Assembly (NCBI GenBank): GCA_963842525.1
Contig: CAWJGT010000009.1
Coordinates: forward strand, 1,504,001 to 1,568,000
From: an uncultured Holophagales bacterium
GTDB taxonomy: Bacteria; Acidobacteriota; Thermoanaerobaculia; Multivoradales; UBA5704
Direction: 5' to 3'
DNA: 64,000 nt
Every line of letters begins with the position of its first letter. The stretch's first letter is position 1. The notes beneath the pieces are model-generated. The model was given only the letters and a program-made list of their open reading frames with translations. It ran no database searches and had not been told where the DNA came from. Positions 5,251 to 64,000 of this stretch are shown here, piece after piece. Position numbers and translations under genes: made by a program.

Positions 5251-5333
5251 GCCGGAGTGGCGAAATGGCAGACGCAGGAGACTTAAAATCTTCCGCCCTT
5301 ACGGGCATGCGGGTTCGAGTCCCGCCTCCGGCA
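5251..5333 (+). tRNA. tRNA-Leu: tRNA-Leu(TAA)
   Basis: GCCGGAG/CTCCGGC acceptor stem, D-loop GGCGAAATGGCAGACGC, anticodon loop CTTAAAA, long variable arm, T-loop GGTTCGAGTCC. Confidence 0.96.
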
Positions 5334-5352
5334 TCACAGTAAAGATCTATAG

Positions 5353-5432
5353 AATCAGTAGCTTAGAAGGATTGTCTGTGTTGGGCCTTCCCTCGGCAGG
5401 GGCCGCTCGTGTACCATTTTTGTACCAGTGCC
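5353..5432 (+). other. attL arm: IHF-like site and integrase arm-type repeats
   Basis: AATCAGTAGCTTA matches WATCARNNNNTTR; two TGTACCA copies 11 bp apart at 5410-5427, repeated near 16335. Confidence 0.55.
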
Positions 5433-5447
5433 TGAGGGAGGATCTGC

Positions 5448-6554
5448 ATGGCGACGATTCGGAAGCGCAAGGGCAAGAACGGACGGATGACTTACGTAGC
5501 ACAAATCAGACTGGCGGGGAGACCCAGCATTGCCAAGACCTTCGAGCGCTTGACCGACGCCAGGGAGTGGGCTGCCAAGGCAGAGACTGAGATGCGGCGG
5601 AACCGCGTGCTCGGTGGACGCCGGACAGTGGCCCAAGCCATCGATCACTATCGCGCTCAGCAGATTGGGACCCTTTCACCGGCCCACATCGTCCACCGAG
5701 AACGCCAAGTCGCTTGGTGGAAGGAACGGGTTGGACGGGTCCTTCTCGAAGATATCGGCCCGAGCCACGTCAACGAGCACCTTCGAACTCTTGAGGGTCG
5801 CAAGGTGGCGACGCGGAATCGCTATCGCGCGGCTATCTCGGCAGTGCTCTCCTTTGTGGTGGAGGAGGAGTGGCTAAGCGCGAACCCTCTTCACGGGCGC
5901 CGTCGGCGACACCGCTCCCTCGGAGAGCGGGAAGAGGAGAGAGACCGTGAGGTGACTCCGCAGGAATGGGAGCGTCTCCAAGATGCGTGCCGGCGCTGCA
6001 GGGACCCAAGGCTCTACGCGCTCGTCTTGTGTGCTCATGCAAGCGGGGCTCGGCAGGGTGAGCTGCTGGGGATGGAGTGGCGGAGGCTTGAGCTTAAGCC
6101 TTGGGTTTTAGACCCTGAGACTGGGAACCGTCGTCAGGGTGTTCCCCGTTGCGAGGTGATGGCTACGAAGAACGGCACGAGCCGAATCTTGTACTTCCCG
6201 GGCGAGGCGGGGGAGCTTCTTGGCGCGATGCGAGCAAAGGCAGTGCTGTCGCGTTACGTCTTCGCTCGTCCAGGAGATGCCGCGAATCTTGAACCTAGGT
6301 TTCCGGGGTTTCCGGATCACGCCTGGCGGCACTGGCGGGACAAAGCCGGACTTTCTGATGTCCGGTTCCATGATTTGAGGCATACCTGGGCCTGCGAGAT
6401 GTTAGACAGCGGGGCTACCTTGGCCCAGCTGATGATTCTGGGGGGCTGGAAGACGGCGAGCATGGTTCGCAGGTATGCAGCACGGGCGCAGAGGCACGGG
6501 TCAGACGCGGTAGAAGTGCGGCATGCAAGAATGCAGGGAGGTCGGCTCGTTTAA
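5448..6554 (+). CDS. Tyrosine recombinase / phage-type integrase
   Basis: Catalytic residues R (SGARQGE), K (ATKNG), HDLRH, GGW, Y (RRYA); directly downstream of the tRNA; RBS GGAGG. Confidence 0.95.
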   Translation: MATIRKRKGKNGRMTYVAQIRLAGRPSIAKTFERLTDAREWAAKAETEMRRNRVLGGRRTVAQAIDHYRAQQIGTLSPAHIVHRERQVAWWKERVGRVLLEDIGPSHVNEHLRTLEGRKVATRNRYRAAISAVLSFVVEEEWLSANPLHGRRRRHRSLGEREEERDREVTPQEWERLQDACRRCRDPRLYALVLCAHASGARQGELLGMEWRRLELKPWVLDPETGNRRQGVPRCEVMATKNGTSRILYFPGEAGELLGAMRAKAVLSRYVFARPGDAANLEPRFPGFPDHAWRHWRDKAGLSDVRFHDLRHTWACEMLDSGATLAQLMILGGWKTASMVRRYAARAQRHGSDAVEVRHARMQGGRLV

Positions 6555-6557
6555 TGT

Positions 6558-6830: not shown

Positions 6831-6852
6831 ACGCTTTACCAGCTCATTAATT

Positions 6853-8692
6853 CTACTTTGTCAGACTGTGGGGTAGCGGGTAGGAGCCCGTCAAGATCGG
6901 TCCAGCCGTCCCGTCGCGTCCGCTCTTCCATGGCTCATCCGGCGGTCTTAAGGTCTTGATTCCAGACACCTCGGCGGTGTAGAGTTCCGGCAAGGCGCCA
7001 TTGTGGCGCCGCCGGAAGATACCGAGATGCCAAACTCCCCACCTGAAGGGACGTAAGTCCAAGGAGAAAGCCGATGCCCCAACCCCACTTGAAGACATGG
7101 GGCAACGGTTCCAGAGCTTTACAGAGCGCTACGAGGGTCACTTTCAGCGCTGGATGCGCTCTGTTGTCCGTCAGGCCCAGAATTATCTACAGGGCTTGAT
7201 GCAGGCCAGCCGCAAAAACATGGAGCGCATGGAGGAAGTCGTGCCGGATTGCGACTATCAGTCGCTCCAGCACTTTGTCTCTGTTTCAGAGTGGGATTTT
7301 CGTGCGGTGCTGGACCAGGTGGCGGTGGAAGCGGACCGCCATCTTGGCGGGTCTGAAGACTCCTGTCTGATCCTTGACGAGAGCTCCTTCGAGAAAAAGG
7401 GAGAGATGTCCGTGGGTGTGGCGCGGCAATAGTCAGGCCGCCTGGGGAAGGTGGAGAACTGTCAAGTGGCGGTCTTTGCCGCCTTGTCTGAAGGGCTGCA
7501 TGCGATCTTGATCGACACCCGCTTGTACCTTCCCGAAGCATGGATTCGGGATCAAGAGAGATGCCGGGCGGCCGGCATTCCCGAGTCCGAGATGGTTTTG
7601 AAAAGCAAGACAGACCTGGCCTTCGAGATCGTTGTGCATGCTCACGACAACGGTGTACGTTTCAGTTGGGTGTGTGTCGATGGTGGGTATGGCAAGGAGC
7701 CTGGCTTTCTGCGCCGTTTGGAGAATCACGGGGAGGTGTTTGTCGCCGAAGTCCACAGAGATCAGCGGATCTACGTAGAAGATCCCGACCCCCGCGTACC
7801 CGAGCCGAAGCCGCGCGGCAAGAAGCCGACGCAGTTGCAGGCACAGAGTGCGAGCCAGCGCGTGGATGAATGGGTGAAAGCTCAACCCGCCGAGTCCTGG
7901 CAGCCGGTGACGGTTCGTCCGGGTAGCCAAGGGGAGTTGCGGGTGGAGGCGTTGCATGCGCGCGTGTGGCTGTGGGACGGCAGTGAAGAGAAGGGCCACT
8001 TGTGGCATGTTGTGGCGACGCGGGAGGTGGGTTCGCCAGAAACGATCAAGTACGCGCTGAGCAACGCCCCTGCGGAGACCTCTGTGGAGCGGTTGGTGCA
8101 GATGCAGCGGCGGCGTTTTTGGATCGAGCGTTGCTTCGAGGACGGCAAGAGCGAGTGTGGAATGGCAGACTACCAGGTGCGTGGTTGGCTCGCCTGGCAC
8201 CATCATATGGCGTTGGTGATGATGGCGATGCTTTTTATGTTGGAGGAGAAGCTCGCACAAAAGAAAAGCTACCCGCTGTTGAGCTGTTCTGACATCGAGG
8301 TCTTGTTGGCTCACTTTTTGCCGCGGCGTGACACTACGGTTGCGGAGGTGGTTCGTCAGATGGAGGCTCGGCACAGGGCACGCCAAAACGCCATTGAATC
8401 AGCCTATCGACGACAACAACGTGCTGATGAATTGGAAGCGATCACCCGGCGCCTGAACGGCCAGTAGAGACCGAAGACGGACTGCGGTCATCGAGGCGGA
8501 GGTGAAGCTTCTCACCTCCGGGTGTAATCCTCTTTGTCTCCGGCAGACCTAAAGAGGCGCTTCTGGGTAACCCGGTACGCCGAAAGGTATGGTTGGAGGT
8601 GGTGGAGCGCGGGCATCGCGGCCGGGTTATGCCGAACTTCCGCTGCCACCCTTCAGGCTGCGCTTATACCCGCACTCAGTCTGACAAAGTAG
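6853..8692 (+). mobile_element. IS701-family insertion sequence
   Basis: 16-bp perfect terminal IR CTACTTTGTCAGACTG / CAGTCTGACAAAGTAG; flanking AATT on both sides (6849-6852, 8693-8696). Confidence 0.9.
7097..8467 (+). pseudogene. IS701 transposase with in-frame TAG at 7430-7432
   Basis: RKNMERM, LILDESSFEKKG..SVGVARQ*SGRLGKVENCQ, DGGYG, RFWIERCFEDGKSECGMADYQVR; both ORFs lie in the same frame. Confidence 0.9.
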
Positions 8693-8963
8693 AATTAGGA
8701 ATCGGATTCGGCTGCACCTTGGTTGTCCTCGCCCTGCATGGGATCCGTGTGTTGGGAGGTCATCTCATCGATATTGCCCTTCCTCTCGGTACTCGCGTTG
8801 CCCCTTCTATCTCGGATGTCTGGGAGACCCTGGTTTACGGGGTCCGGCTCTTCGAAACTATCGTATTCGAGACGCTACTCATATTACCCATTGTCGGAAT
8901 AATCGTGCTGCCCCGATTCCTGCGCCGCCGCCTGGGCCGCCGGCTCCGGTCGGGAGGACGGCC

Positions 8964-10230
8964 ATGGGCGCACTGCTCTCGAGAGCCGACCGGATTGCTC
9001 GCGGAGTCCTGCTTCATTACACCGATCTGCCGAAACTGGTGGGGCCGGAGTGGCCTCGGCTGTATTGGTCTCTTCTCGACCGCCTCGACGAGTTCCACGC
9101 CGCCACCGACGAGGACTCCCGAGAGCGGATCACTCTCGCCTTGCTGGACTTACTGCTGCAGCGTCCCCTTTTCGACAGAGAGCTGGCTCACCGTTGGCCT
9201 CACCGTACCTCGATGGCGAGCCATCGCGAGGCCCGGTCGACCGTTTTCAGGCCAGTGCCCTTATCGAGCTTCTAGATCGCCTGCTTCGGCCCTCCCGCTT
9301 CCGCGGCTAGGTCGAGCTGACTCATCCCCAGGTGATCCGTATCGGAACCCGGGCTCTTGTATCGCTCGCCTTCCTGCCTGCGGGGGCAGTGGAAGGTGCG
9401 GCTGGCGCCTTGGAGCTGAAGGAGACGATTCCGGTTCAGGTGCGGGCGTGGGGCGAAGGTGTTTTCCTGTACTCCGGGCGAACAGCTCATTCACCTAGAC
9501 CGGAGTTCTCTGCCACGCCAACTGACCTATGAGATCACGGGTCTCACTCCCTGCCCGGGGCTTCTCGTCATTGAGATCCGGCAGGAGAGACGATTGCTCA
9601 AGGTCCTCCATGGCCGTATCCATATCGAGGAGAATCCTGCTGTCAAAAGCCCTCCACCGACGGCTTTCAGCCGCGACCCTGAGGCATAAAACTGCCGCCC
9701 GACTACCGCCGCAGTTTTATCAGAGGATCTCAGGGGTCCGGTCGATTCCCCTTCGAAGCAGGGGGGCGGGCAGCACCCGTCCCGACGCTCTCATTCATTT
9801 CGACCTGTCGGAGAGTGGACGTTTTCGGATCTCTCTGGAGTTCGACAACTCCCGTGGATTGGCGACTCAGGCAAAACGCCGCCTGGAGTCCGATCCAATC
9901 GTCTACTGGCGCAGCCTGCGGGCCGAGTTGGAACGACTCCCGACCGGCGATCCCCTCCGTGAACTCGAGCGGATCAGTGGGCGCCTCTACCAGGAAGGGT
10001 GGCCAGCCGCACTCATCCCCGCCATGGAGGAGTTACTTGCCAGCGACGCCCGAACCGTTCAAGTGTGCTTCTCGCATCGGTGGCTGATCCCCTGGGAGCT
10101 CCTCCGCCCCTACGGCCTATCAGCAGCTCCACGGTCCAGGAAAGCTTTCTCTGCGAGCGCTTCGACATGGCCCTCTGGCACTTTTCGGAGACGGCCATTC
10201 GGCCCTCCGTGCGTCTCGTCTCGCGGGCTC
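8964..10230 (+). pseudogene. Frameshifted remnant of a CHAT-domain-associated protein
   Basis: Successive frames give ..PDALIHF.., LERISGRLYQE..PAAL, WLIPWELLRP, then FLCERFDMALW, typical of the region preceding a CHAT (caspase-HetF) domain; the catalytic part is absent. Confidence 0.55.
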
Positions 10231-10706
10231 CGGAGGTTGCGGCCGGGTGCAGGGACGGTGCCCGTGATCCTGGAGGTGCGGCGGGGGTGGATCTGCTGCT
10301 CCTGGGGAGCCGTGTCGAGGCTGAGGTACGGCTGACCGGCGAGCTCGCCGGGATCGTGATCCCCGCTTTGGCGCTGGTAGACGACCACGGGGGCGAGGTG
10401 GCCTATGTCCAGCTCGGCGGGGAGAGCTTCGACCGGGAGGTCCAGGTCGAGGCCCGCCAGGGAACCGCTAGCGCAGGTGCGGGGCATCACGCCCGTCGAC
10501 GAATTAGCAGCGCAGGCGGCTACCATAGCTCGATTCTTCCGGTGCGGTACGCGGCGGCCCCGGCTTCGGAGAGTCCGGGCTTGTTCCTCGTACTCCACGG
10601 CTGCCTCGTGGTTCTTTTGCCTGCGAGCCTCTCTTGCCGCCTGGGACCATTCTGAGGCGCGACTCTCGAGAGCGCGGTGTCGAGTCCCGCGTAATTCCGT
10701 GGCCAC
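10110..10706 (-). CDS. Hypothetical protein (strand ambiguous)
   Basis: Open frame with high GC3 and a helical-looking N-terminus; the antisense frame is also open. Confidence 0.25.
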   Translation of the reverse strand: MATELRGTRHRALESRASEWSQAAREARRQKNHEAAVEYEEQARTLRSRGRRVPHRKNRAMVAACAANSSTGVMPRTCASGSLAGLDLDLPVEALPAELDIGHLAPVVVYQRQSGDHDPGELAGQPYLSLDTAPQEQQIHPRRTSRITGTVPAPGRNLRSPRDETHGGPNGRLRKVPEGHVEALAEKAFLDRGAADRP

Positions 10707-10747
10707 CTTTTCGAAATATTTCGTGGCGGACAGAAGGGGGAAGAGAG

Positions 10748-10793
10748 CAGTCCCGGATTGGGCCGGGTGGCGGTGGAATCCGGGACTGTTTTT
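10748..10793. terminator. Hairpin downstream of the transposon operon
   Basis: 12-bp stem CAGTCCCGGATT/AATCCGGGACTG followed by a T-run on the + strand. Confidence 0.5.
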
Positions 10794-10829
10794 GACCGAA
10801 GGGGCCGAGTTTTCAGCAGTTGCTTTGAT

Positions 10830-11072
10830 TCATTCTGGTCTTCGCGCCCAGGAGTTGGCAATCCAGCGCCGCAGGCCGACACGGACGTTCTTGAAACGGG
10901 CGGCCGGCCGGTTGTTGTGATACCACCTGAAGGTCTTGGTCTCCTCGAGAATGTTGAGATCCTGGAAGTCTGCGATCAGCTCGTCGACAAACTCTTCGTC
11001 GAGCTTGCGATCGAACGGGTACTCGGGGACCTGGTTTTGCAGGTAGTCGAGGATGGGTTCGGGTGTGTTCAT
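10830..11072 (-). CDS. Small hypothetical protein of the transposon
   Basis: 80 aa, ATGA-coupled to the ATPase gene; typical codon usage. Confidence 0.7.
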   Translation of the reverse strand: MNTPEPILDYLQNQVPEYPFDRKLDEEFVDELIADFQDLNILEETKTFRWYHNNRPAARFKNVRVGLRRWIANSWARRPE

Positions 11073-11875
11073 GAGCGCATCTCCTCGGCGGCTTGCAGGA
11101 CGTGCTCGGGCTCGACGAGCTTGGCTCTGGAAGTGGCTGCGGCGGCCAGGGCGTGGTGGGCCAGGGTGTCGATTCTGCGCATGATGCCCTGGGAGGCTTC
11201 AAAGAGGGCTTCCTGGGCGGGGGCGGTGAAGAGGGGTCGATCCAGGCCGGCGATCTTGAGGCGATGTTCGAGGTAGCAGCAGGTGGTGTCTCGGTCGAAG
11301 CCGCGCAGGGTGAAGCGGATGGTGATGCGCTGAGCGAGGGCCTCCAGATGCGACAGGCGCAGGATCTGTCGCAATCCGGATTGACCGGCCAGGAGAAAGG
11401 CAAGCCGTCCTTCTGCGTCCCATTCAAAGTTGGCGAGCAGGGGGAAGAGGGCGAGGACGTCGGGCCTGAGGTTGTGGGCTTCGTCGACGATGAGCAGGAC
11501 GGTTATGTGGCGGTCTTTGACGAGGCGTTGGATCTCTTGCTGGACGAGGCGGAAGGTCATGGCGCGAGACCATTCGGGCTGGAGGCCGAGTGCAAGGGCG
11601 AGTTGGCGGCAGAAGTCGGCGGGGTTGACCAGGGTGTCGTGCAGGTACACAGCGCGCACCTGGTCGGGGTGGAGATCGTCGCGCAGTCGCCTCAGGGCGG
11701 TGGTTTTGCCGCTGCCCGGCTCGCCGGTGAGCAGGCCGATGGCCCTGGAGTCGACCAGGTAGCGCAGACGGCTGTGGAGCTCTTCGAGCCCCTGAGGCCG
11801 AAACAGAGAGTCGGCGGTGAGGGGGCCGTGGAAGGGCGGCCGGGTGAAGCCGAAGGCGGTGGTATAGAGGTTCAC
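11069..11875 (-). CDS. ExeA-family AAA+ ATPase (transposition helper)
   Basis: Walker A GEPGSGKT, Walker B LIVDEAH, LAGQ, LAQRI; GTG start overlaps the transposase stop. Confidence 0.9.
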   Translation of the reverse strand: MNLYTTAFGFTRPPFHGPLTADSLFRPQGLEELHSRLRYLVDSRAIGLLTGEPGSGKTTALRRLRDDLHPDQVRAVYLHDTLVNPADFCRQLALALGLQPEWSRAMTFRLVQQEIQRLVKDRHITVLLIVDEAHNLRPDVLALFPLLANFEWDAEGRLAFLLAGQSGLRQILRLSHLEALAQRITIRFTLRGFDRDTTCCYLEHRLKIAGLDRPLFTAPAQEALFEASQGIMRRIDTLAHHALAAAATSRAKLVEPEHVLQAAEEMRS

Positions 11876-13200
11876 TGGGGCTCCCCCTGATAGAACTTCT
11901 TGGCGATGAGCTCGAGGTAGCTGATGCCGGTGGTGGGCGCTTCTCTGGCCGGCTCGCTGTTTCTTTCGAGTCGGCGCAGGGTGGCGTTGGTGGCGAGGTC
12001 GAGCCGGCGCAGAGGCAGCTCGGCGCTCTGGCCTTTGCGGCAAAAGTGGACGGGCCGGGCGGGGTCATAGGGATCGTAGAGGACGTCGACGGTCTCACCG
12101 GCATAGCCATCGGGAGCCTCATAGAGACGGCCGTCGAGGTGGACGGTGCGGTCGCGGCCGACCCGGCGGGTGACCTTCATGCGCAGCCAGGCCTCCAGGT
12201 GCTCGGGGGCCGGGCGGATCAGGGCCTGGTCCTTCAGAAAGCGGTCCAGAGGCGTTTGCCCGTCCAGGCCGCCGTGGGCAGTCTGGTGATACTCGCCCTC
12301 CAGCCAGGCCCAGAAGACGCGGTTGAGCTGGGCCAGATCGGCGAGGACCTCGCTGGTGAGGTGGGGGACAAAGGCGGTGCGGACGTGGCGGAAGAAGCGC
12401 TCGATCTTGCCGCGACCGCGCGGCTTGTGGGGCCGGGAGTGGACCAGGGAGATGTTCAGCGTGGCGCAGATGACCTGCAGGTGGTGGGTGCGGAAGGTGG
12501 CGCCGTTGTCGCAGTAGAGCCGTCGCGGCAGGCCGCGGCGCAGCAGAGCCTGCTTCAGAGCGTCCTGGAAGCAGGCGGCGTTTTCGGCCAGGTAGAAGGC
12601 GGCAAACGGCACCATGCGCGAGGCGTCATCGAGGAAGGCGTAGAGGTAGGTCTTGCCGCCGTCCTTGCGCCCCGGCACCAGCAGGCGGGGCCCGTGCATC
12701 AGGTCGGAGGTCCACAGGTCGTTGACATGCGGAAAGGTGAAAGCCAAAGCGTCCGGCTCGGCGCTGGACCCTTGGCGGGCCGGCACCGCCTGGGCGGCGA
12801 AGAAGCGGTGCACGCTGCTGCGCGACAGCCGCAGATTGGGCGCAAAGCGGCCGCACAGATGCACGGCGCGGATCAGGCTGTCGAGCGAAGCACCGGGCCG
12901 CTCGGCCCGCAGCGCCAGCAGCAGATCCTGCACCTCCTCCGGGATCGCCCGCGAGCGCCCGGCATCGGTACGCGGGCCCGGCTTGAGCCCCTCAAACCCA
13001 TGGATCTGGTACAGCTCGAGCCAATCTCGCACCGTCGAACGGCCGACGTGGCTGCGCGCGCTGCCCGGGATCGTCCACGTCTTTTCCGCGATCGCACACA
13101 ACAGCTTCTCTTTTTCGCGTGGCGCCAACGGCCGGCTGATCAGCTCGGCAATGACGCTGTGGCGAAACAACGCAATCTGCTCTCTTTGGCTCTCATCCAT
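11872..13200 (-). CDS. DDE (rve/Mu-type) transposase
   Basis: LWTSDLMHG, AFLDDASR, LYCDNG, GKIERFF; Mu-transposase C-terminal RRVGRD..LDGRLYE. Confidence 0.92.
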   Translation of the reverse strand: MDESQREQIALFRHSVIAELISRPLAPREKEKLLCAIAEKTWTIPGSARSHVGRSTVRDWLELYQIHGFEGLKPGPRTDAGRSRAIPEEVQDLLLALRAERPGASLDSLIRAVHLCGRFAPNLRLSRSSVHRFFAAQAVPARQGSSAEPDALAFTFPHVNDLWTSDLMHGPRLLVPGRKDGGKTYLYAFLDDASRMVPFAAFYLAENAACFQDALKQALLRRGLPRRLYCDNGATFRTHHLQVICATLNISLVHSRPHKPRGRGKIERFFRHVRTAFVPHLTSEVLADLAQLNRVFWAWLEGEYHQTAHGGLDGQTPLDRFLKDQALIRPAPEHLEAWLRMKVTRRVGRDRTVHLDGRLYEAPDGYAGETVDVLYDPYDPARPVHFCRKGQSAELPLRRLDLATNATLRRLERNSEPAREAPTTGISYLELIAKKFYQGEPQ

Positions 13201-13291
13201 CGCACGAAGTCTCCGCAATCGGGCTCTGGGACCATCCCACAGCCCCCGCCAGTAGCTTCGTGGCAGAACCCTGCGATGGGTAGTTACCAAC

Positions 13292-13853
13292 CTATGGAGA
13301 GGCCTCCCCTGACCGCCAGGACGGCCGGCCGTGGCGGAACAGTCCGCTCACTCCGCCGAAAAAGCAGCCCCAGGACGACCACAGAAAGTGCCGCAGCCGC
13401 GTCAACCAACCCGCCGCCTGGCCCACCACCTCCTGCGCCCCCCGCCACCACGGAGCCGGCACTGGCCCCAGCAGCGCCTGCAGCTTGGCGGCAAAGGGCT
13501 CGTGCGCGCTGCGCAGCCAACCCCGCACCCGCCGCACCCCCGAACTGCCGCACTGCCCTGAAACCTCGGCGCCTTCGCTCGGACTCCCCGCAGCCAGACC
13601 CGCCTCCACGGCCGCCAAGGTCAAATCGCGATAGGCGCACGTCCTCCGGCAACACCGCATGGCTGACCCTGCAACGCGGGCACCGCACCCGCCGCAAGGC
13701 CTGAAGCACTCCTGCGAGGAAGCGCTTGTAGGAGCCGTGGCCCCGCAGACGGGTCCTCTGACAATCCGGATCCGGGCAGCTCAGCTCGGGAACCGCCCCG
13801 CCGTCCATCTGCTCTCGATACTGCTTGCAGCCCACGCCCTTCAGACTTAACAT
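13292..13853 (-). pseudogene. DUF6431-like zinc-finger gene, frameshifted near 13640
   Basis: CPDPDC..HGSYKR..RVRCPRC..SHAVLPED continues in another frame as CAYRDLTL. Confidence 0.7.
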
Positions 13854-14101
13854 GGCCTCCTCTCGGAAGCCCGTCGGGTCATCCCCGGTCCGCCAAAAGA
13901 CACAAGGAGAGCCCGGCGGGCTTCGCTTGCCTTGCCCGACCTCTCCACAGGCAAAATCGTCCCGCACTCCTGCGCCGACGAATCTACCTGACCACGCTGA
14001 AAACTGGGAAAAACTCAGGCGGCGGTCACGAAATAAGGCGGGCGTCTACAGCGCGGACAAGTGCTTCGAGGTCAGGGTCGAGCGTCATGCTGCCTCCAAT
14101 G

Positions 14102-15483
14102 GATAGAGGTCCCGTCAAGAGGTGTGTAAAAGATCAGGCGGCTTTCTCCTCCTCGAACCGGTTTTGGACTCGTACTCCATCGACGAACTGAGCTTCCCAG
14201 AAAGACCTCTTTGAGCTGCTCGGGAGCGTTGAGCCGACGGAATGTCTTCTCCGCGACCAAGAGCAATTTCCAGAGGACCGCGGTGGCGTTGGCCACCTTC
14301 TTATAGCGGCGTGCGGCGTCGGTGCGTAGCCGCAAGGCCGCAAACGGCGACTCGATCGGATTGGTGGTGCGCAGGTGCCGCCAATGAGCCTCCGGAAAGC
14401 GATAAAATGTGATTAGTCGCTCCCAGTCTCGATCCAAACACTCGGCGGCGGCCTCCTGGGACTGCTGACGGCACCAGCGCTGAAACTCCCGTTTGGCCGC
14501 CTCGGCTTGCTCTTGCCCGGGCGCATAGACGATCCGGCTCAGCAGCGGTTTGGCTGCGCTCTGAAGCCGTTTCGGCAGCTTGTCGAGAATGTTCAGCATC
14601 TTGTGGTTCCAGCAGCGCTGCTGCTCGGCCTCGGGGTAGACGTTGCCAAGCGCCCCCCAGATGCCCAGGTGGCCGTCACCGGCGACCAGCCGCGGGCACC
14701 TCAGGCCGCGACTTTTCAGGTCCCGCAGCACCGCAGACCAGCTCTGGCTGGATTCCCGGTGGCCGGGCGCCACCGTCAAGATCACCTTTTTGCCGTCCGA
14801 CAGCGCCCCCAGCACCACCAACACCGCGGCCCGGTCCTTTTCCAGGCCCGCCTTGACATAGATCCCGTCCACCCACAGGTAGACCACCTCCAGATCGGCC
14901 AGCGACCGCTGGCTCCACTGCACCATCTCGGCTTGCCACTTTTCCTTCAGCCGCGCCACTGTGCTGGCCGACAACGGGGCCTCTTGCCCGAGCAGGCCCC
15001 TGAGGGCCAAGTCGAAGTCCCCTTCCGCCAAACCATGCAGGTAAAGCTCCGGCAGGAGCTCGCCGACCTGCCGGCTGCGACGAGAAAACATCGGCAGCAG
15101 ACGGCTTTCAAACGGCTCCTCCGTGTTGCGCACGCGCGGTCGCCGTAGCCGGATCGTGCCGTTGCTCAGCGTCAGACGGCGAGGCTTGCCGTAGCCGTTG
15201 CGGTAGCCCGAAGGGGCGTCCACGGCAGCGCGCCGCTGTGATCTCAGGCGACCCAAGAACTCCGTAACCTCTTCTTCGAGAAGAGCTTGCAGGGTCTCTT
15301 GCATCTTTCCTCGTAGCCACTCCTCGAGATTCTCAAAGCATGGGCTTGACACGGTCGTAGCTTCGGTGGTCCTCTCTGTCATGGGCGGTGCCCTCCCTTT
15401 CCCCGGGCCCTCACCCGGGATTTTGGTTGACGATAGGGAGTCTACACCGCCTTCTCTGTTTCCACACCTTCTGAGGGTACCTC
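14102..15483 (-). mobile_element. IS256-family insertion sequence
   Basis: Imperfect IRs GAGGTCCCGTCAAGAGGTGTGTAAA (14106) and reverse-complement GAGGTACCCTCAGAAGGTGTGGAAA (15483); CCAATG on both flanks. Confidence 0.85.
14134..15382 (-). CDS. IS256 (Mutator) transposase, probable frameshift in the last ~20 codons
   Basis: YRNGY, YLWVDGIY, GDGHLG, QRCWNHK, LRTTNPIES; the native-looking C-terminus FVDGVRV..EKAA is in another frame. Confidence 0.9.
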
Positions 15484-15772
15484 CCAATGCGCGCTGAATC
15501 GCCTTAGGTGGCGGCACGGGAACGCCGCCGGCAACGATCCGAACCGCTACCCCGGTCCGGACCGAACCCCAGGAGATTGTGCCCGGCCGGGGGTGGTGGA
15601 ATGGAGCAGCACATCTTTGACTCGCCACTTGGGAACCATACGCGAGGTGTAGCGATCCTGCGGCCCTACCCCCTTCGGAGCAGGTCTCTCGCGAATGGTG
15701 GATGGCTCAGGAGCGGAACGAAACCCAAGCACGGACCTGCCAACCGGCCGCGCGTAGTATCTCCTCGCTTGG

Positions 15773-16760: not shown

Positions 16761-17365
16761 GGGCGGGCGTCGATACCCCAGGGTGTGGTGGAGATGGCTC
16801 TCCCCGGAGCACCAGGAGGAAGCCGGGCCGGCCCTCAAGAGCGGCGGCCAGCCGCTCCTCCAGCGGCGGAAGAGCGCCGCGGGCGAGGCTGGGGCGACGC
16901 AGGCCAGGGAGGGGACGCGGAAGCGTCTGCTTCTGGGTGTAGTTCCGCCTACATTAGCCAGTGGAAGAAGCGCTATGGAGAGTCAGAACTGGCCGGCTTC
17001 AGGGCCGTCAAATGCACCAGTTCGCTACCTCTGCAAACTAGAGAAACATTCGAAATTGTGACATTCTAGGGGAAACGCGCCCGTGGCCGGCGGTCGGGAG
17101 TCCTCCGCGAACGAATGGCTACGGGCCCTCCTTCAAGACCATAAGGTTGAGGTGCGGCGCTATAAGCACACCCTTACTCAACGACATCCAGGCCTGTAGC
17201 GAGATCCCGCGGGCCAGGGGGCGTCACTGGTTTGGCCTCCTTGATGCCGGGATTGGCTGCCCGACGCCTGCTCCCGCTTCGCCTCTCAGGTACCAGTGAG
17301 AATGAGAAAAGGTGCAACTTGCCTGCAGGTCTAGTTCCGAGCGATGCTTTCCAGGAGGGCCTTCC

Positions 17366-18673
17366 GTGGTTGAACATCGACAGTTCCGCTTGAAAGCATT
17401 TGAGGTGATTGGATCCGAGTCCATTGCCAGCGTGATCGAGCGCATGGTGGGCCACGAGGCCTTGCGCTGGTACATCTCCCGGATTACTGATCAGGAGATC
17501 ATAGTCGAGGCTACACTCGCGGAAGGGGAGATGTTCGCGCCCGAGACGGTGGCCGATCGTGCGTGGTATCCTGGCAGGGCGGTGGTGGTGAACCTTGTCC
17601 CCACCGGCATCGGTTGCGACTTGGGTGGATACGCGGGCGATGCGGCTCCGGCTACCAATCTGATGGCCGCCACGGCGGACTACCTTGTCACCAATCCGAA
17701 CGCCGTCAACGCCTCCAACTTCATCAGTATGACCGACAACGTGCTCTACACCGAAGGCCTCTGCATCGACCTGCTAATGAAGGGAGCCGTGGACCTTCAG
17801 GTACCCTATGCGAACAAGGTCGGCCTGATTATAGAGAAGACCAGTCCTGAGGACCTGGACCTAGTGTTCAACGTGATCAATACAGTCCGAGCTGTGTTCG
17901 GCATCGACGTGGTGGAGTACGTCGTCACTGACCAGTCTATCGGCAGCCACTGCCTCGAGAACGGCTCCGGAGCGTTTGTAGGTACGGTGGACCGGCCAGA
18001 TGTGCTCTTCGATGCCTGTGAGCAACTGATCCGCAAGGGCGTCAACGCGATCTCCGTGACCACCAACATCCAGGACCTCCCGTCGGAAGAGTACGTCAAG
18101 CACTTCGAAGGCGATTATCCGAACCCGCTGGGCGGAGTCGAGGCGATCATCTCGCACCTGATCGTCAACCGGTTCCAGGTGCCAGCGGCCCATGCGCCGA
18201 TGCTGAACAAGAAGGATCTTGAGCTGAACGACCCGATCGTTGACGCGCGCGGGGCCGGCGAGATGGCGTCTGCCAGCGGCCTCGCCTGCACCTTGATTGG
18301 CCTGCGGCGGGCGCCGCACATCAGCCGGCATCGCTGCTTCAACCCGGCGGACCTGGTGAATGTCCACAACGTGCTGGCAGTGGTCTGCCCGGCGAGTTCG
18401 TTGGGAGGCATCCCGGCGAGCTATGCCCATAAGCACGGCATTCCAATCCTGGCGGTGAAGGAGAATGGCACAGTGATGAAAGTGCCGGGTAGCAGGCTCG
18501 GTTTCGAAAACGTGATCGAAGTCGGCAACTATCTCGAGGCCACGGGTGTGCTGCTCGCGCTGCGTAAGGGGATCAGCCTCTCCTCGGTGCGGCGCCCGCT
18601 CCCGACGCTCCGGCATGGGATGGGCTCCACCGCGGAGAAGGCGAAGCCGCGAGCCCGATTCGAGGTGGTCTGA
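17366..18673 (+). CDS. DUF3326 domain-containing protein
   Basis: VPTGIGCDLGGYAGDA, LVTNPNAVNAS, GGVEAIISHLI, PAAHAP, NYLEATG; GTG start after RBS GGAGG. Confidence 0.85.
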   Translation: MVEHRQFRLKAFEVIGSESIASVIERMVGHEALRWYISRITDQEIIVEATLAEGEMFAPETVADRAWYPGRAVVVNLVPTGIGCDLGGYAGDAAPATNLMAATADYLVTNPNAVNASNFISMTDNVLYTEGLCIDLLMKGAVDLQVPYANKVGLIIEKTSPEDLDLVFNVINTVRAVFGIDVVEYVVTDQSIGSHCLENGSGAFVGTVDRPDVLFDACEQLIRKGVNAISVTTNIQDLPSEEYVKHFEGDYPNPLGGVEAIISHLIVNRFQVPAAHAPMLNKKDLELNDPIVDARGAGEMASASGLACTLIGLRRAPHISRHRCFNPADLVNVHNVLAVVCPASSLGGIPASYAHKHGIPILAVKENGTVMKVPGSRLGFENVIEVGNYLEATGVLLALRKGISLSSVRRPLPTLRHGMGSTAEKAKPRARFEVV

Positions 18674-18932: not shown

Positions 18933-20324
18933 TCAGACCTCGACGACGATTCCCTCAGTGGCGTAGAGGCTGAGGTTCACCGCCCCGCCGCTGGCCTTCG
19001 GCTGCATACGCAGGACCACCCCGGCGTACGACCCGGCGAAGACGAAGGGACCCCAGATGACATCGTGGACCTCGCACCCCTGGTCGCCGCTCTGGTAGAG
19101 GTAGGGGAGCGATTCGAGCTGCTCCTGGACAACCCAGGCGCCATCCTGCGCCAGCGCCTTGTCGACTGTCGCCCGCCACTCCTCGGCCGTGGCGAAGCGG
19201 CCGAGCACGACCCCCTTGCCACCTCTGGACGATGCCTCCTTGAGCACCAGGCGCTCCTGGCGCGCGATCAGCAGATCCTCCAGGGAGGAGGACCGCTCCC
19301 CTTCGAAGTCGACCGGACCGGGGACCACCAGGCGGGTCCAGGGCACGTGCCGGGCGATGAAGGCCCGCTCCTCGGCGTCGAAGATCTCCGCGGACTCGGC
19401 GTGCTGGGAGAGCAGCGCGACGTTGCGCTTGGTCGACAGCACCGACTCCAGGGGGCCATTGAGAATAGAGAGCTGGCCGGCCTTGAAAGCACGGTAGACC
19501 GGCTCCGGCGCGAGCTGCGACGCGAATTCGAGGACCGCCTGCACCCGACGTCCCTCATGAAACACGCCCTCCGGCGTGCCGGTCAGGTCCGCGTACCGGC
19601 AGACCACGGCGCGCCCCCGCAGGTCGCCGCGACCCGCGGCGGCGAACGCGCGCGCGATCTCGCCGTTGAGGAAGACAACCTCCGGATCCGTCGGGCCGAG
19701 CGGCTGGTTGCGGGTGGTAAAGGCGAGCGTCAGCTCGCCGCTGTCGAGGAGCCCCTTGCGCTCGAGGTCGGCGAGCAGGTGCAGGAAGAACTGGAGCACC
19801 GTGTCCGTGTAGCGCACCTCGATGCCCAGCTCGCGCAGGGCAGCGGAGGTTGCCGGTACCGACAGGTGCATGCCCACCAGCAGCGACGTCTCCCAGCCGC
19901 CGAGGTTGGGGGTGAAGTTGAACTCGATGCACTTGAAGCCGTCCGCGGTCTCGATCAGGTCGCCGCGGGAGACGGCGGTCTCGATGCCGCTCGGCGGGCT
20001 GAAGAGCAGCTCGGCGATCCGCGGCGGGCCCAGGCGGTAGAACTCGGCCAGGCGCGCCGGGTCGCCGCCGAAGATGCGCTGCGGCACGCTGGCCAGCAGG
20101 TTGAAGACGCCCAGGCTCACGCGCTGCAGCTCCGCGAGCTTCTCGGCCCCGAGGAAGGTCGGCCAGGGCTGCAGCCGGTACATCAGCAGGTCCTTGTTCT
20201 GCTCCAGCGCCTGGAAGGACGAGCGGGAGAGCAGCTCGGGGGAGCCGAGCGCCATCTCACGGAAGCGGAGATCCTGCTCGGACAGGGCCTGGTGCGTCGC
20301 ACGCCAGTCTGCGCTCTGGGTCAT
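18933..20324 (-). CDS. Circularly permuted ATP-grasp (glutathione/glutathionylspermidine synthetase-like) amide ligase
   Basis: SRGDL, KCIEFN, LVLKE..GGKGVVLG and WVVQE motifs; start MTQSAD with RBS AGGAG. Confidence 0.8.
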   Translation of the reverse strand: MTQSADWRATHQALSEQDLRFREMALGSPELLSRSSFQALEQNKDLLMYRLQPWPTFLGAEKLAELQRVSLGVFNLLASVPQRIFGGDPARLAEFYRLGPPRIAELLFSPPSGIETAVSRGDLIETADGFKCIEFNFTPNLGGWETSLLVGMHLSVPATSAALRELGIEVRYTDTVLQFFLHLLADLERKGLLDSGELTLAFTTRNQPLGPTDPEVVFLNGEIARAFAAAGRGDLRGRAVVCRYADLTGTPEGVFHEGRRVQAVLEFASQLAPEPVYRAFKAGQLSILNGPLESVLSTKRNVALLSQHAESAEIFDAEERAFIARHVPWTRLVVPGPVDFEGERSSSLEDLLIARQERLVLKEASSRGGKGVVLGRFATAEEWRATVDKALAQDGAWVVQEQLESLPYLYQSGDQGCEVHDVIWGPFVFAGSYAGVVLRMQPKASGGAVNLSLYATEGIVVEV

Positions 20325-20426: not shown

Positions 20427-21545
20427 ATGGATTTCGGCTTGATGTTCTTCTCCAGCTCCGGCGCGGCTGCGGCGAACGGCCGCTACAGCCTGCTCCTCGA
20501 GGCGGCCCGCTACGCGGATGAGCACGGTTTCCGCGCCGTCTGGACGCCGGAGCGGCACTTCCACGAGTTCGGCGGCCTGTTCCCCAGCCCGGCGGTGGTC
20601 AGCGCCGCCCTCGCCATGATCACCCGCCAGCTCGAGATCCGGGCCGGCAGCCTGATCTCGCCCCTGCACCAGGCGATCCGCATCGCCGAGGAGTGGTCGA
20701 TCGTCGACAACCTCTCCGGCGGCCGGGTGGCGGTCTCCTTCGGCTCCGGCTGGAACGTCGACGACTTCCTGTTCTTCCCGGAACGCTATGCCTCGCGCCA
20801 CGCGGTCATGTACGGGCAGATCGACACCGTGCGGCGCCTGTGGCGCGGGGAAGAGCTGGAGCTGGCCAACAGCTTGGGCAAGCCGGTCCGGGTCGCGCTC
20901 TACCCGAAGCCGGTGCAGCCGGAGCTGCCGGTCTGGATCACCTCCTCGGGCAACGTCGAGACCTTCGTCAGAGCCGGTGTCCACGGCGCCAACGTGTTGA
21001 CCCACCTGATCGGGCAGACCGCCGACCAGCTCGCCGGCAAGATCGAGCGCTATCGCGCCGCGCTGGCCGAGCACCAGGGGCCGCAGGCCCGGGGCAAGGT
21101 CACGTTGATGCTCCACACCTGCCTGGGCGCCGACCGCGAGGAGGTCAAGGCGCGAGTGCGGACGCCGTTGCGCGAATACCTGCGCTCCGCGGTCAGCCTG
21201 GAGCAGCTCGCGGCCCTGGGCGGCGGGACGATCAGCGGCGGGCACCAGATCCAGGCGCAGGAGATCCCGCCGGCGGTCCTCGAGGAGCTGCTCGACGTCA
21301 CCTTCGAGCGCTACGTCGAGACCGCCTCCCTGATCGGCACGCCGGCCAGCTGCGAGCCTCTCCTCTGGCGCTGCGAGGAGATCGGCGTTGACGAGATCGC
21401 CTGCCTGGTGGACTTCCTCGACGACCCGGCCGCGGTGATGGCGGGCCTGCCGTACCTCGCGGAGCTGCGCGAGACCTTCGCCGACCCGGCAGGGCCCGGA
21501 GGCCTCGATCCCGTCCGTGCGCTGCTCGAGGGCTTCGAAGGATGA
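20427..21545 (+). CDS. MupA/Atu3671-family FMN-dependent luciferase-like monooxygenase
   Basis: MDFGLMFF, AVWTPERHFHEFGG, AEEWSIVDNLSGGR, GANVLTHL, GVDEIACLVDF. Confidence 0.93.
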   Translation: MDFGLMFFSSSGAAAANGRYSLLLEAARYADEHGFRAVWTPERHFHEFGGLFPSPAVVSAALAMITRQLEIRAGSLISPLHQAIRIAEEWSIVDNLSGGRVAVSFGSGWNVDDFLFFPERYASRHAVMYGQIDTVRRLWRGEELELANSLGKPVRVALYPKPVQPELPVWITSSGNVETFVRAGVHGANVLTHLIGQTADQLAGKIERYRAALAEHQGPQARGKVTLMLHTCLGADREEVKARVRTPLREYLRSAVSLEQLAALGGGTISGGHQIQAQEIPPAVLEELLDVTFERYVETASLIGTPASCEPLLWRCEEIGVDEIACLVDFLDDPAAVMAGLPYLAELRETFADPAGPGGLDPVRALLEGFEG

Positions 21546-24115
21546 CGCCGCCGGACGCCTCTGCGCACCGGGTCGCCCTCCCCGGCTCCGGCGGGCAATG
21601 GGCCGTCTGGCGCCGCCTCTGCGTGCGCGGCGCCGGCTTCCCCGTGGCCGGCGTGCTGCGCCTCGCCTCGCCGCTCGCCGCCGCCGCGGCCGACCGTCTC
21701 AACGCCGCCGAGGCCGAGGCCGAGCGCCGCCGCCTCGCCGCGGTGGAGGCGGTCGGCGCCGCCATGGAGGGTGTCCTGGAGAGCGCCGGCCGCGACGCCT
21801 TCAAAGGTCTGCTCAAGGCGATCCAGAAGCTCAACAAGGGGAAGGTCCCCCCGGGCGACGGCCTGCCGGCCGCGGCCGCCGCCGCCGTGGCGGCCTACGG
21901 CGCTGCGAGCGGGGAGGCCGGGAGGCTTCAGGAGGAGTACCTCGCCGTTGCGGCGGCCGAAGAGCGGCGGCTCGCGGGCGAGCTGCGCGCGGTCGCCCGC
22001 GAGCCGCGGTTCCGCGAAGCCGTCCTCTGGCAGAACCGCCACGTGCTCAAGGCCGGGATCGACAGCTTCCTGCGGCAGGAGGCGAGCGGGCGGCGATCGT
22101 CGAAGGAGCGCCAGAATGAGCTGGCGGTCACCTCCTACCTCCAGCGCTTCTGCACCAAGAACGACACCATTGGATTCTTCGGCCCGGTCGGCTGGGGGAC
22201 GCTGGGAGAGGAGGACGAGCCGCTCGCGGTCACCCACGGCCCCGGCTTCCTCGCCGCGCGCAGAGTCTTCTTCGAGGGGTGGAGCGTCGACGCCCTGGCC
22301 GAGCTGCTGGCGCGCGATCCGGAGCTGCGCCCCGGCCTCCCGCCGCGCCGGGGCATCTTCGTGCGCTCCGACGGCGAGGTGATGGGCCGGGGGGCCCGGC
22401 CGCTGCCGGCGCCCGCGCGCGCCCTGCTCGCCCTCTGCGACGGCGGCACCCCCGCCCGCGAGGTAGCGCGCCGCCTGGTCGCGGCGGGGACCTTCCCGGA
22501 CGCCGAGGCGGTCTACGGTGCGCTCGACCAGCTGTGCGCCGCCGGCCTCGTCCGCTGGGGCTTCGAGCTCCCCCTGGTGCTGGAGCCCGAGCGCGTCCTG
22601 CGGGAGCAGATCGAGGCCCTGGAGCCCGGAGAAGCGCGCGACCGGGCGCTCGCTACCCTCGGGGAGATGGAGGCGGCCCGCCGCGCGGTGGCACATGCCG
22701 CCGGCGACGAGCGGGCGCTGGACGCGGCGCTGCACGAGCTGGAGGATCGCTTCACCCGCCTGAGCGGCCTGGGCGCGACCCGCGGCCATGGCGAGACCTA
22801 CGCCGGCAGGACCCTGGTCTACGAGGACTGCCGCCGCGGTTCCGAAGTCGCCCTGGGCCGGGAGGTCCTCGACGCCCTGGGGCCGCCGCTGGCGCTGGTG
22901 CTGGCCAGCGCCCGCTGGCTGACCCACGCCGCGGCCGAGCTCCACCGCGCCTACTTCGACGAGGTCTACCAGCGGCTGCGCCAGGAGACCGGCGGTGCCC
23001 GGGTGGACCTGGCGACCTTCTGCCGCCGGGCGCTGCCGGCCATGGTCGGGCCGCAGAACCTGGTCGTCCGGCAGCTCCTGCCGGAATTCCGGCGTCGTTG
23101 GACGGAGGCGCTCGCGCTGCCCGACGACGGCCGCCGGCGGGTGAGCTACACCGCCGAGGAGCTGCGCCCGCGCCTGCTGCGCGCCTTCGACGCGCCGGGG
23201 CCGGGCTGGACCATCGCGCGGCACCACAGCCCGGACGTGCTGCTCGCCGCCCGCGGGCCCGAGGCGGTCCGGCGCGGCGACTTCCAGTTCGTCCTCGGCG
23301 AGCTGCACCTCGGCACCAACACTCTCAGCACCAACCTCTTCGTCGGCCAGCACCCATCCCCGGCGGACCTCTTCGCCGCCATGGAACGGGACCTGCCGGA
23401 GCCGTGCGTGTTCCCCACCCTGCCCAAGGTCTGGCAGCAGCAGCAGTCCGACGCGCTCCTCGGTGTCCCCTTGCAGGGGCTGACCGGCCGGCTGTACTTC
23501 GGCCTCGCGACCGGCAAGGACCTCTTCATCGAGGTCACCCCGGCGCCCCCGGGGCTGCCGAGCTCGCAGGTGCTGTCGGTCGCGGAGCTCGCGGTCGAGC
23601 CCGGCGCCCGCGGCCTGCAGGTGGTGAGCCGGACGGGCCGTTGCTTCGACCTGCTCGACTTCCTGCAGACCGCGATCACCTCCCAGATCGTGGGCGCCTT
23701 CCGGCTCTTCCCGGCGCGGTCCCATCTGCCGCGGGTCACCGTCGACCGTCTGGTCCTGTCGCGGGAGTCCTGGGCCTTGCGCGCCGGCGACCTGGAGTTC
23801 GCCCAGGCAGCGACGGAAGCCGCCCGCTTCGCGGGGGCGCGCCGCTGGGCCGCCCGCCTCGACCTGCCACGCTTCCTGTTCGTCAAGACACCCTATGAAA
23901 CAAAGCCGTTCTATCTCGATCTCGAGAGCCCCCCGTCTGTCGAGATCTCCGCCCGCGAGGTGCGGCGGGCGTCGGACAAGAGCGAAGGGAAGGGGGCGGT
24001 CCGTCTGAGCGAGATGCTGCCCGCGCCCGACGAGGCCTGGCTGCCCGACGCCCAGGGGGACCTCTACGCGAGCGAGCTGCGGATGGTGGCGGTGGACCTC
24101 GCCGGGAGGGGCTGA
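21542..24115 (+). CDS. PEARL / small LanB (lantibiotic dehydratase glutamylation domain only; peptide aminoacyl-tRNA ligase)
   Basis: FREAVLWQN, YLQRFCTKNDTIGFFGPVGW, GRTLVYEDC, HHSPD, LGELH, PRVTVDRLV..RESW, KPFYLD, SEMLP, ELRMVAVD at the C-terminus; 857 aa with no elimination domain. Confidence 0.9.
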   Translation: MTPPDASAHRVALPGSGGQWAVWRRLCVRGAGFPVAGVLRLASPLAAAAADRLNAAEAEAERRRLAAVEAVGAAMEGVLESAGRDAFKGLLKAIQKLNKGKVPPGDGLPAAAAAAVAAYGAASGEAGRLQEEYLAVAAAEERRLAGELRAVAREPRFREAVLWQNRHVLKAGIDSFLRQEASGRRSSKERQNELAVTSYLQRFCTKNDTIGFFGPVGWGTLGEEDEPLAVTHGPGFLAARRVFFEGWSVDALAELLARDPELRPGLPPRRGIFVRSDGEVMGRGARPLPAPARALLALCDGGTPAREVARRLVAAGTFPDAEAVYGALDQLCAAGLVRWGFELPLVLEPERVLREQIEALEPGEARDRALATLGEMEAARRAVAHAAGDERALDAALHELEDRFTRLSGLGATRGHGETYAGRTLVYEDCRRGSEVALGREVLDALGPPLALVLASARWLTHAAAELHRAYFDEVYQRLRQETGGARVDLATFCRRALPAMVGPQNLVVRQLLPEFRRRWTEALALPDDGRRRVSYTAEELRPRLLRAFDAPGPGWTIARHHSPDVLLAARGPEAVRRGDFQFVLGELHLGTNTLSTNLFVGQHPSPADLFAAMERDLPEPCVFPTLPKVWQQQQSDALLGVPLQGLTGRLYFGLATGKDLFIEVTPAPPGLPSSQVLSVAELAVEPGARGLQVVSRTGRCFDLLDFLQTAITSQIVGAFRLFPARSHLPRVTVDRLVLSRESWALRAGDLEFAQAATEAARFAGARRWAARLDLPRFLFVKTPYETKPFYLDLESPPSVEISAREVRRASDKSEGKGAVRLSEMLPAPDEAWLPDAQGDLYASELRMVAVDLAGRG

Positions 24116-24186: not shown

Positions 24187-64000
<39,814 letters not shown>

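Follow-up and report, generated by a model that had tools for sequence, protein, structure and literature searches.

A predicted PEARL-type enzyme in the operon of a lipopeptide assembly line that carries no ureido-type condensation motif

How might a peptide aminoacyl-tRNA ligase (PEARL) serve a nonribosomal assembly line that performs no ureido chain reversal? Such ligases usually extend ribosomally made peptides by residues drawn from charged tRNAs. SnaE of Stackebrandtia nassauensis is the sole studied PEARL linked to a nonribosomal peptide synthetase (NRPS), and its logic depends on a ureido-forming condensation (C) domain. In the threopeptin pathway, the acceptor of SnaE is exposed by a C domain with the motif EHHxxHDG in a loader of the order A-T-C-A-T (A, adenylation; T, thiolation carrier), and SnaE is proposed to add the amino acid of an aminoacyl-tRNA to a carboxylate beyond the reach of the assembly line. 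The sections of that report cited here describe the motif as necessary and sufficient for ureido formation on current examples, allow that SnaE may act on T-bound intermediates and regard it as the likely founder of a broader class (PMC11212132). We examined a window of 64,000 nucleotides from an uncultured Holophagales bacterium (GCA_963842525.1, contig CAWJGT010000009.1, positions 1,504,001 to 1,568,000), in which a plus-strand gene at 21542..24115, here called P0001, encodes a stand-alone enzyme of apparent PEARL type. P0001 forms an operon with three genes for NRPSs and polyketide synthases (PKSs), and their lipopeptide line lacks ureido chain reversal, the one known basis for a PEARL–NRPS partnership. 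Our literature searches for PEARL or LanB-like enzymes with NRPSs found only the SnaE work, commentary and reviews. We think it reasonably probable that P0001 is a working PEARL-type ligase for this nonribosomal line, dependent on ATP and aminoacyl-tRNA and acting on a lipopeptide that has undergone no ureido reversal; we infer its chemistry, and the NRPS product as its acceptor, by analogy with characterized enzymes.

The open reading frame (ORF) of P0001 runs from an ATG at 21542 to a stop at 24115, encodes 857 amino acids and has the C-terminal end ...YASELRMVAVDLAGRG. Pfam detected only Lant_dehydr_N (PF04738; E 2.2e-39, 135.6 bits against a cut-off of 28, in two stretches) and no further family at E ≤ 0.01; NCBIfam gave no match at E ≤ 0.01. 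An earlier reading made from the letters alone (the sequence-only reading) had placed a PEARL without an elimination domain at exactly this ORF and had proposed to look for Lant_dehydr_N in the absence of Lant_dehydr_C, which is what Pfam returned. The AlphaFold2 model, with 24 relatives in the input, was confident (pLDDT 86.9, pTM 0.87), and all 11 PDB matches that Foldseek found for it at E ≤ 0.001 were LanB-type proteins (TbtB, GodF, MibB, MadB and NisB), with TbtB (6ec7) the best (E 1.2e-23, TMq 0.62), followed by values of 2.1e-17 for MibB and 7e-15 for NisB. On this model, P0001 has the LanB glutamylation fold. Direct sequence comparison was less sensitive: TbtB was the sole match of the family profile to PDB sequences, weakly (E 1.5e-11) and with an alignment that ended before the E-x-R motif, and a phmmer search of PDB with the C-terminal 158 residues yielded chance-level matches only. 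The model also contains a winged-helix insert at about residues 260–340 that resembles a recognition element for ribosomally made, post-translationally modified peptides (RRE-like); residues 271–341 gave weak matches to PqqD and Fur-type proteins (E 0.25–0.47).

A shared fold leaves the choice between ligase and dehydratase to individual residues. As PEARL comparators we used five proteins from the loci L087, L091 and L092, three of which adjoin a BhaA-like scaffold gene in L092. The LanB comparators were four full LanBs from host-related genomes, confirmed by Pfam to carry both Lant_dehydr_N and Lant_dehydr_C, of which three were aligned; host-related genomes also supplied four N-only 'E-x-L/V' proteins of another subfamily. 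Y199, R202, R731, R741, D793, E824 and E845 (P0001 numbering) were common to all LanB-type proteins in one alignment. The P0001 family carries in addition R29, Q201, N207, D208, R423, D565, E587, H589 and R847. At nearly all nine of these signature columns the five PEARL comparators had an identical or conservative residue, whereas the signature was missing from all three full LanBs and all four E-x-L/V proteins, in every one of which R29, D565, E587, H589 and R847 were replaced. Five residues (D565, E587, H589, E845 and R847) were invariant or absent in one sequence among the family members compared, 120 stand-alone and 89 fused; Y199-x2-R202 and R423 were invariant in these members and in six distant sequences, Y199 being found in 119 of the 120 stand-alone proteins. 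All family-invariant residues are intact in P0001.

These residues can be set beside those printed for two characterized PEARLs, namely R34, Y205, R208, R429, D558, E575, E813 and R815 of BhaBC-Trp and R10, E542, E801 and R803 of TglB. According to the sections of the source cited here, Y205, R208 and R429 of BhaBC-Trp hold the tRNA's 3'-CCA end, and E542, E801 and R803 of TglB, like D558, E575, E813 and R815 of BhaBC-Trp, serve ATP-dependent phosphorylation of the carboxylate and are lacking in dehydratases (PMC11962472). The order and spacing of the P0001 residues fit the printed ATP, carboxylate and CCA sites of both enzymes. Matched by pattern rather than by alignment, D565, E587, E845 and R847 would form the phosphorylation set of P0001, and Y199, R202 and R423 its CCA-end set. 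Because its signature groups with the scaffold-linked homologues and with the residues printed for BhaBC-Trp and TglB, we read P0001 as a PEARL-type ligase; judged by its residues against the LanB comparators, it is PEARL-like rather than dehydratase-like. P0001 therefore shares its fold and the seven common residues with split LanBs (TbtB of thiomuracin biosynthesis, and GodF) and with full LanBs (NisB, MibB and MadB), and differs from them in having no elimination partner and, at R29, D565, E587, H589 and R847, from the full LanBs in its signature. With the scaffold-dependent PEARLs TglB, AmmB and BhaB (PMC11962472, PMC12945691) it shares the RRE-like winged helix and the presumed ATP, carboxylate and tRNA-CCA residues, as found in the L092 homologues; unlike them, it has an NRPS/PKS partner and no ribosomal scaffold gene that we could find, and it is 22–27% identical to the L092 proteins.

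None of the marks of a class I LanB system (PF14028 fused or adjacent, LanC, a precursor peptide) was present at the P0001 locus. In the whole 9.95-Mb genome, the sole match to the elimination domain Lant_dehydr_C (PF14028) lay on another contig (C3:1391806-1392583) beside Lant_dehydr_N matches, and the P0001-family profile did not match this LanB region. The Lant_dehydr_N and Lant_dehydr_C matches there (C3:1391806-1394854) occupy several different frames, and one TGA interrupts the C-domain match, so that the region may be a broken or mis-assembled class I dehydratase. The genome has 14 LanC-like matches, of which the nearest on the P0001 contig, C9, is 239 kb away. Between 15.6 and 81 kb, no intergenic small ORF had the third-position GC content (GC3) of the surrounding high-GC genes and none was a credible scaffold, and no ORF in the region from 5 to 134 kb ended in a PLAL(A)-type scaffold C terminus according to a script that does not recognize other scaffold types. 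This C terminus is conserved among PEARL scaffold peptides in the cited part of PMC11962472. The same script detected one in L092, a metagenome contig of 41% GC: a 36-residue acidic peptide gene at L092:597 (plus strand; region 183-14930) ends in PLAL and lies 5' of matches to four tandem PEARL homologues, one of them partial. L092 looks like a BhaA/BhaB-type pearlin cluster. The small-ORF search across the cluster that the sequence-only reading had suggested came out as it had expected, as did the search beyond the window for a stand-alone elimination domain. Its statement that LanC, an elimination domain and a scaffold ORF are missing between 17 and 24 kb held; it had missed a minus-strand gene at 18933-20324, and the interval also contains the genes for a DUF3326 protein and a monooxygenase. 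The background on which it drew, a ribosomal scaffold for TglB and a ureido-derived acceptor for SnaE, agrees with PMC11212132 and PMC11962472 in the parts cited here.

The partner of P0001 is a long lipopeptide line. NRPS 1 (24187..37893, plus strand) begins 71 nt after P0001, immediately downstream as had been noted, and has the order FAAL-ACP-C-A-T-C-A-T-C-A-T, with a luciferase-like monooxygenase (LLM) insert and an FkbM methyltransferase insert in its last A domain (Pfam on pieces, and core motifs). NRPS/PKS 2 (37878..47420, plus strand) has the order KS-AT-ACP-C-A-T-C-A-T, and NRPS/PKS 3 (47417..64000, continuing beyond the window to 78400, plus strand) the order C-A-T-KS-AT-ACP-(C-A-T)x7-C-TauD, with no thioesterase (TE). 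NRPS 1 and 2 overlap by 16 nt and NRPS 2 and 3 by 4 nt. The GC3 of P0001 is 0.94, matching that of the NRPS genes 3' of it, and values across the upstream monooxygenase gene, P0001 and the NRPS genes are 0.90–0.95. The fatty-acyl start and the ordinary C domains described in the sequence-only reading were both borne out: the line begins FAAL-ACP-C, and none of the 14 C domains in the three adjacent genes has EHHxxHDG. Those of NRPS 1 read HHIAADF, HHIVADG and HHIVADG, those of NRPS/PKS 2 HHLVSDA and HHIVSDA; over all 14 the motifs are HHIAADF, HHIVADG, HHLVSDA, HHIVSDA, HHIVSDG and HHIASDG, and the last domain has LHHIVHDE. A six-frame scan from −20 to +135 kb likewise found no EHHxxHDG, so the ureido-type C domain that might have lain beyond the window was absent to +135 kb, and the only near match was this LHHIVHDE, at 76370.

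The motif LHHIVHDE, in the terminal C domain of NRPS 3 beyond the window, has the extra His of the ureido motif without its Glu and Gly. This domain is fused to a TauD dioxygenase (76007-78397; L001:12721-15111), and the NRPS gene after NRPS 3 opens with a weakly scoring C domain (105 bits). In potashchelin biosynthesis the arrangement is FAAL-ACP-C-TauD, then C-A(Asp), according to the cited part of PMC7100376. Because a C-TauD end followed by a C-A gene resembles that arrangement, the odd terminal C domain, by analogy, more probably relates to beta-hydroxylation than to a reversal of the chain. In two further places downstream of NRPS 3, a terminal C domain is followed by a stand-alone TauD gene. 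P0001 is like SnaE in being a stand-alone Lant_dehydr_N-only protein in an NRPS/PKS cluster, with neither scaffold peptide nor elimination domain; unlike SnaE, it accompanies a line that starts with FAAL-ACP-C and not with an A-T-C-A-T loader. P0001 shows the testable features of PEARLs except a scaffold peptide, and it lacks the ureido feature that defines the SnaE system.

To what extent does this arrangement recur among relatives? A word-indexed protein search scored 7999 candidates and gave 1289 relatives at E ≤ 0.001. The 120 best all matched PF04738 only and measured about 820–900 residues, except one of 662, and the nearest relative among the matches listed, from a metagenome, was 75% identical. 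In species-representative genomes, at least 576 relatives were found among the 600 pattern matches listed, and we retained 79 loci, spread over Acidobacteriota, Chloroflexota, Myxococcota, Actinomycetota, Cyanobacteria, Gemmatimonadota and Pseudomonadota. Within 10 kb of the PEARL gene, an A domain occurred in 58 of the 79, a C domain in 52, a T domain in 55 and a KS in 7. The motif EHHxxHDG was found in 2 of 90 related loci (L066 and L077); the P0001 locus and the other 88 had no ureido signature in the DNA fetched. For most of this family, which has hundreds of members and extends over at least seven phyla, the logic of SnaE consequently does not explain which acceptor is used or whether the step occurs on-line or off-line.

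Additionally, 92 longer proteins carry a PEARL domain fused to NRPS or PKS parts, and 84 of them have an A-domain core motif ahead of it. Most are arranged as C-A-T-PEARL (in Micromonospora, Saccharothrix, Actinophytocola, Salinispora and others), with a presumably Val-like A code. Six fusions have the order A-T-C(EHHFVHDGW)-A-T-PEARL, which mirrors SnaA and SnaE in one chain, and one is KS-AT-ACP-TE-PEARL (P0124), without the winged-helix insert of P0001. A FastTree phylogeny of 215 sequences, built without the SnaE sequence, placed P0001 together with the TE-PEARL fusion in a 46-member clade (support 0.998). Its sister group (0.815) is the clade of actinomycete fusions in which the ureido-type fusions nest, so P0001 lies beside and not inside the group that holds them. 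A carrier domain ends within 600 nt 5' of the PEARL gene in 14 of 85 loci, and in L009, L070, L130 and L131 a carrier-domain match with no preceding A domain lies 27–243 nt after it; according to the ORF lists of L131 and L070, this A-less carrier domain opens the next megasynthase ORF. Tandem PEARL copies occur in several loci. Of 21 loci with a FAAL-length match, 19 have it within 5 kb of the PEARL gene. A different candidate, tRNA-dependent loading of an A-less C-T module in Streptomyces and Kitasatospora loci, was set aside on account of a stand-alone A domain just upstream.

By analogy with TglB, BhaB and SnaE, P0001 would use ATP to phosphorylate one of the lipopeptide's carboxylates, and the amine of an aminoacyl-tRNA would then attack the phosphorylated carboxylate. 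The result would be the addition of one proteinogenic residue that the NRPS itself cannot add, and, unlike the reaction of SnaE, this step would proceed without ureido chain reversal. The sequence-only reading had named three possible acceptors (an iso-linked Asx alpha-COOH, an Asp side chain and the released C terminus) and had omitted a carrier-bound chain. The fusions and orphan carrier domains of relatives suggest action on carrier-bound chains. Our leading candidate, to which we give a little less than an even chance, is the C-terminal carboxyl of a chain that a carrier domain has just released or still holds. Our thioesterase queries matched nothing between 18.9 and 128 kb, although a divergent enzyme could escape them; a type II thioesterase query and Pfam on the tail genes likewise gave none at 78–135 kb, and the last NRPS gene of the cluster ends in a C domain. 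With no thioesterase detected and a C domain at the end of the line, the carboxyl group would most simply come from a chain end, either free or held on a carrier. The TE-PEARL and T-PEARL fusions and the tandem PEARL copies fit stepwise extension of a chain end. By contrast, the frequent proximity of FAAL genes points to the starter end, as in SnaE, and a carboxylate on the starter or N-terminal cap is a second, rather unlikely candidate. We rate a third on a par with it, the side chain of an Asp, Glu or beta-hydroxy-Asp residue introduced by the downstream NRPS block, and the remaining share falls to something else.

If P0001 attaches proteinogenic residues to what the NRPSs make, a product structure predicted solely from NRPS genes will lack a residue, and the enzyme could become a tool for appending amino acids to nonribosomal scaffolds. 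A more general proposal, which we hold tentatively and with some doubt, is that PEARL domains are widespread modular parts of NRPSs, and that most of them, P0001 included, feed a tRNA-charged residue into a carrier-bound or released chain without ureido reversal. In such a role they would connect the translation pool with NRPS chemistry in a general way, and they could also release chains in lines that have no thioesterase. The fusions and orphan carrier domains offer concrete constructs with which to address whether the step occurs on-line or off-line.

Several observations weigh against a PEARL-type step on this line. The mapping of catalytic residues from TglB, BhaB, AmmB and SnaE onto P0001 rests on pattern and numbering and not on alignment. 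A-domain codes, which we derived manually from motif anchors and set against familiar codes instead of using a predictor, presumably give, for the 13 high-GC modules, Ala, Phe, Gly (the module with LLM and FkbM inserts), unknown, Ser, Gly, Ala, Asn-like, Pro-like, Asn-like, unknown, Pro-like and Ala. On these presumed assignments, the three adjacent NRPS genes have two Asn-like modules and no Asp or Glu module, and the predictable part of the product has no free carboxylate; Glu-like and Asp-like A4/278 signatures (DAKD and DLTK) were seen only in a low-GC block beyond the window. P0001 is a stand-alone protein with no directly flanking carrier domain, and its cluster has no A-less carrier domain. 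Among relatives, 21 of the 79 loci have no A domain, and at least eight with full 10-kb flanks have no NRPS or PKS match (L005, L019, L056, L059, L060, L068, L069 and L074). Four of eight loci from relatives of the host (L124, L127, L128 and L129) have no NRPS domain in 20 kb, and these NRPS-free loci include three of the four closest, at 46–49% identity. Finally, the cluster lies on a mobile island, is mosaic in its composition and may be non-functional: overlapping frames suggest frameshifts near 94.3, 110.7 and 117.0 kb in the downstream low-GC NRPS genes, and because of these the pathway may not be intact.

We also considered a tRNA-fed step within the assembly line itself, in which P0001 would couple an aminoacyl-tRNA with a chain bound to a carrier and pass the product to a carrier thiol, or would load a carrier directly, replacing a C-A pair or a thioesterase. 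The A-less carrier domains just after the PEARL gene in L009, L070, L130 and L131 are consistent with such a step, as are the C-A-T-PEARL fusions, which place the PEARL domain where a TE or the next C domain usually stands, and the possible action of SnaE on T-bound intermediates. However, each T or ACP domain in the P0001 cluster has its own A, AT or FAAL domain, a thioester donor would make the conserved ATP-site residues needless, and our literature searches turned up no such reaction in print. We regard this alternative as unlikely.

Somewhat less probable again is that P0001 acts as a LanB-style glutamyl transferase that esterifies a Ser or Thr of the lipopeptide, for example at module 5, with a second enzyme forming dehydroalanine or with the ester kept as a branch. 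Its fold is that of TbtB, MibB and NisB, it keeps the seven LanB-wide residues, and one module, module 5, has a presumably Ser-like code (DVWHVSLVD). Against this, the only PF14028 match of the genome is on another contig and none turned up when Pfam was run on ten representatives drawn from the 25 listed recurrent neighbour families, the residues separating scaffold-linked PEARLs from the full LanBs and the N-only E-x-L/V proteins are present in P0001, and the family profile does not detect the LanB region of the same genome. Least probable is a scaffold-dependent enzyme whose peptide is encoded elsewhere, or a relic, placed beside the NRPS genes by accident of island assembly, a reading that the tRNA-integrated island with its insertion sequence (IS) copies and GC mosaic, the relatives at 46–49% identity without NRPS genes within 20 kb and the retained RRE-like winged helix would allow, and that is opposed by the four-base overlap with the monooxygenase gene, the short gap to NRPS 1 and equal GC3, the intact family-invariant residues, the absence of a scaffold-like ORF in 129 kb and the NRPS domains on the same contig in all three of the closest relatives with context (L083, L084 and L085; 63–66% identity).

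The gene directly upstream of P0001 (20427..21545, plus strand) encodes an FMN-dependent LLM of the MupA/Atu3671 family (TIGR04020, E 2.3e-136, 454 bits against a cut-off of 244; Pfam Bac_luciferase), and its stop overlaps the ATG of P0001 in a four-base ATGA, an arrangement of translational coupling. A second LLM is the insert of NRPS 1 module 3 (32647-37890), where the A domain is split twice, by the LLM and by the FkbM-type methyltransferase, and a PKS module without a ketoreductase follows. We take the code of this A domain to be Gly-like, and the module presumably resembles the glycine-hydroxylating MOx module of MtaG from the myxothiazol pathway. A(LLM) modules also stand beside the PEARL gene in L055, L061 and L067.

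Further upstream, the minus-strand gene at 18933..20324 is divergently transcribed and encodes a protein of 463 residues; its GC3 in the minus frame is 0.9–1.0, and the high-GC block begins with it. It matched CP_ATPgrasp_2 below the cut-off (E 7e-4), and its atlas neighbours, with scores of 0.96–0.98, have GSP_synth or CP_ATPgrasp on 11–42% of members. Its product is possibly a glutathionylspermidine-synthase-like or circularly permuted ATP-grasp ligase, which we offer as a lead. The DUF3326 protein (17312..18673, plus strand; PF11805, E 4.1e-85) has 878 representatives at E ≤ 0.001; its AlphaFold2 model was confident (pLDDT 91.4) and had no PDB match at E ≤ 0.001. DUF3326 recurs beside or near the PEARL family in L056, L066, L077 and L085, and in the two loci that have a ureido-type C domain, L066 and L077, it lies directly upstream of the PEARL gene.

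The whole cluster is carried on an island of ~128.6 kb integrated at a tRNA-Leu(taa) gene. The tRNA and a tyrosine integrase (5251..6554, plus strand; Phage_integrase, E 9.5e-19) mark the left end, and a 25-nt repeat of the tRNA 3' end occurs at 5309 and at 133855-133879, the latter inside a degenerate copy, ~50 nt long, of the 3' half. Two inverted copies of a 3.05-kb IS21-like element, 99.87% identical, bracket the cluster within the island at about 11000-14050 and 129080-132130; each has a transposase with rve and Mu-transposase C domains and an AAA_22 helper. DDE_5 and Mutator-family transposases lie at 7451-8467 and 14072-15628. GC content is 0.72–0.77 from 18.9 to 78.4 kb and 0.60–0.65 from 78.4 to 128 kb, against a genome mean of 0.675. 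The low-GC block contains a B12/radical-SAM gene, co-directional NRPS/PKS genes, two stand-alone TauD genes, an asparagine-synthase-like gene, a MacB-type exporter, a carbamoyltransferase, a methyltransferase and a CmlA-like hydroxylase.

Recurrent neighbours of the PEARL family include ABC and MacB exporters, MFS proteins, a type II thioesterase and a pair formed by an ornithine-cyclodeaminase-family (OCD) protein and a PLP-dependent enzyme, among others. The OCD gene lies beside the PEARL gene in 13 of the 79 loci and the PLP-dependent (PALP) gene in 10 (for example L014, L020, L021, L030, L038 and L050), and the order PEARL-OCD-TauD-FAAL occurs in six. The pair is reminiscent of diaminopropionate synthesis of the SbnA/SbnB type. 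In L129, which has two tandem PEARL genes and no NRPS nearby, an ORF of 154 residues lies beside them on the minus strand (L129:13941-14405), and its N terminus presumably resembles that of a D-aminoacyl-tRNA deacylase.

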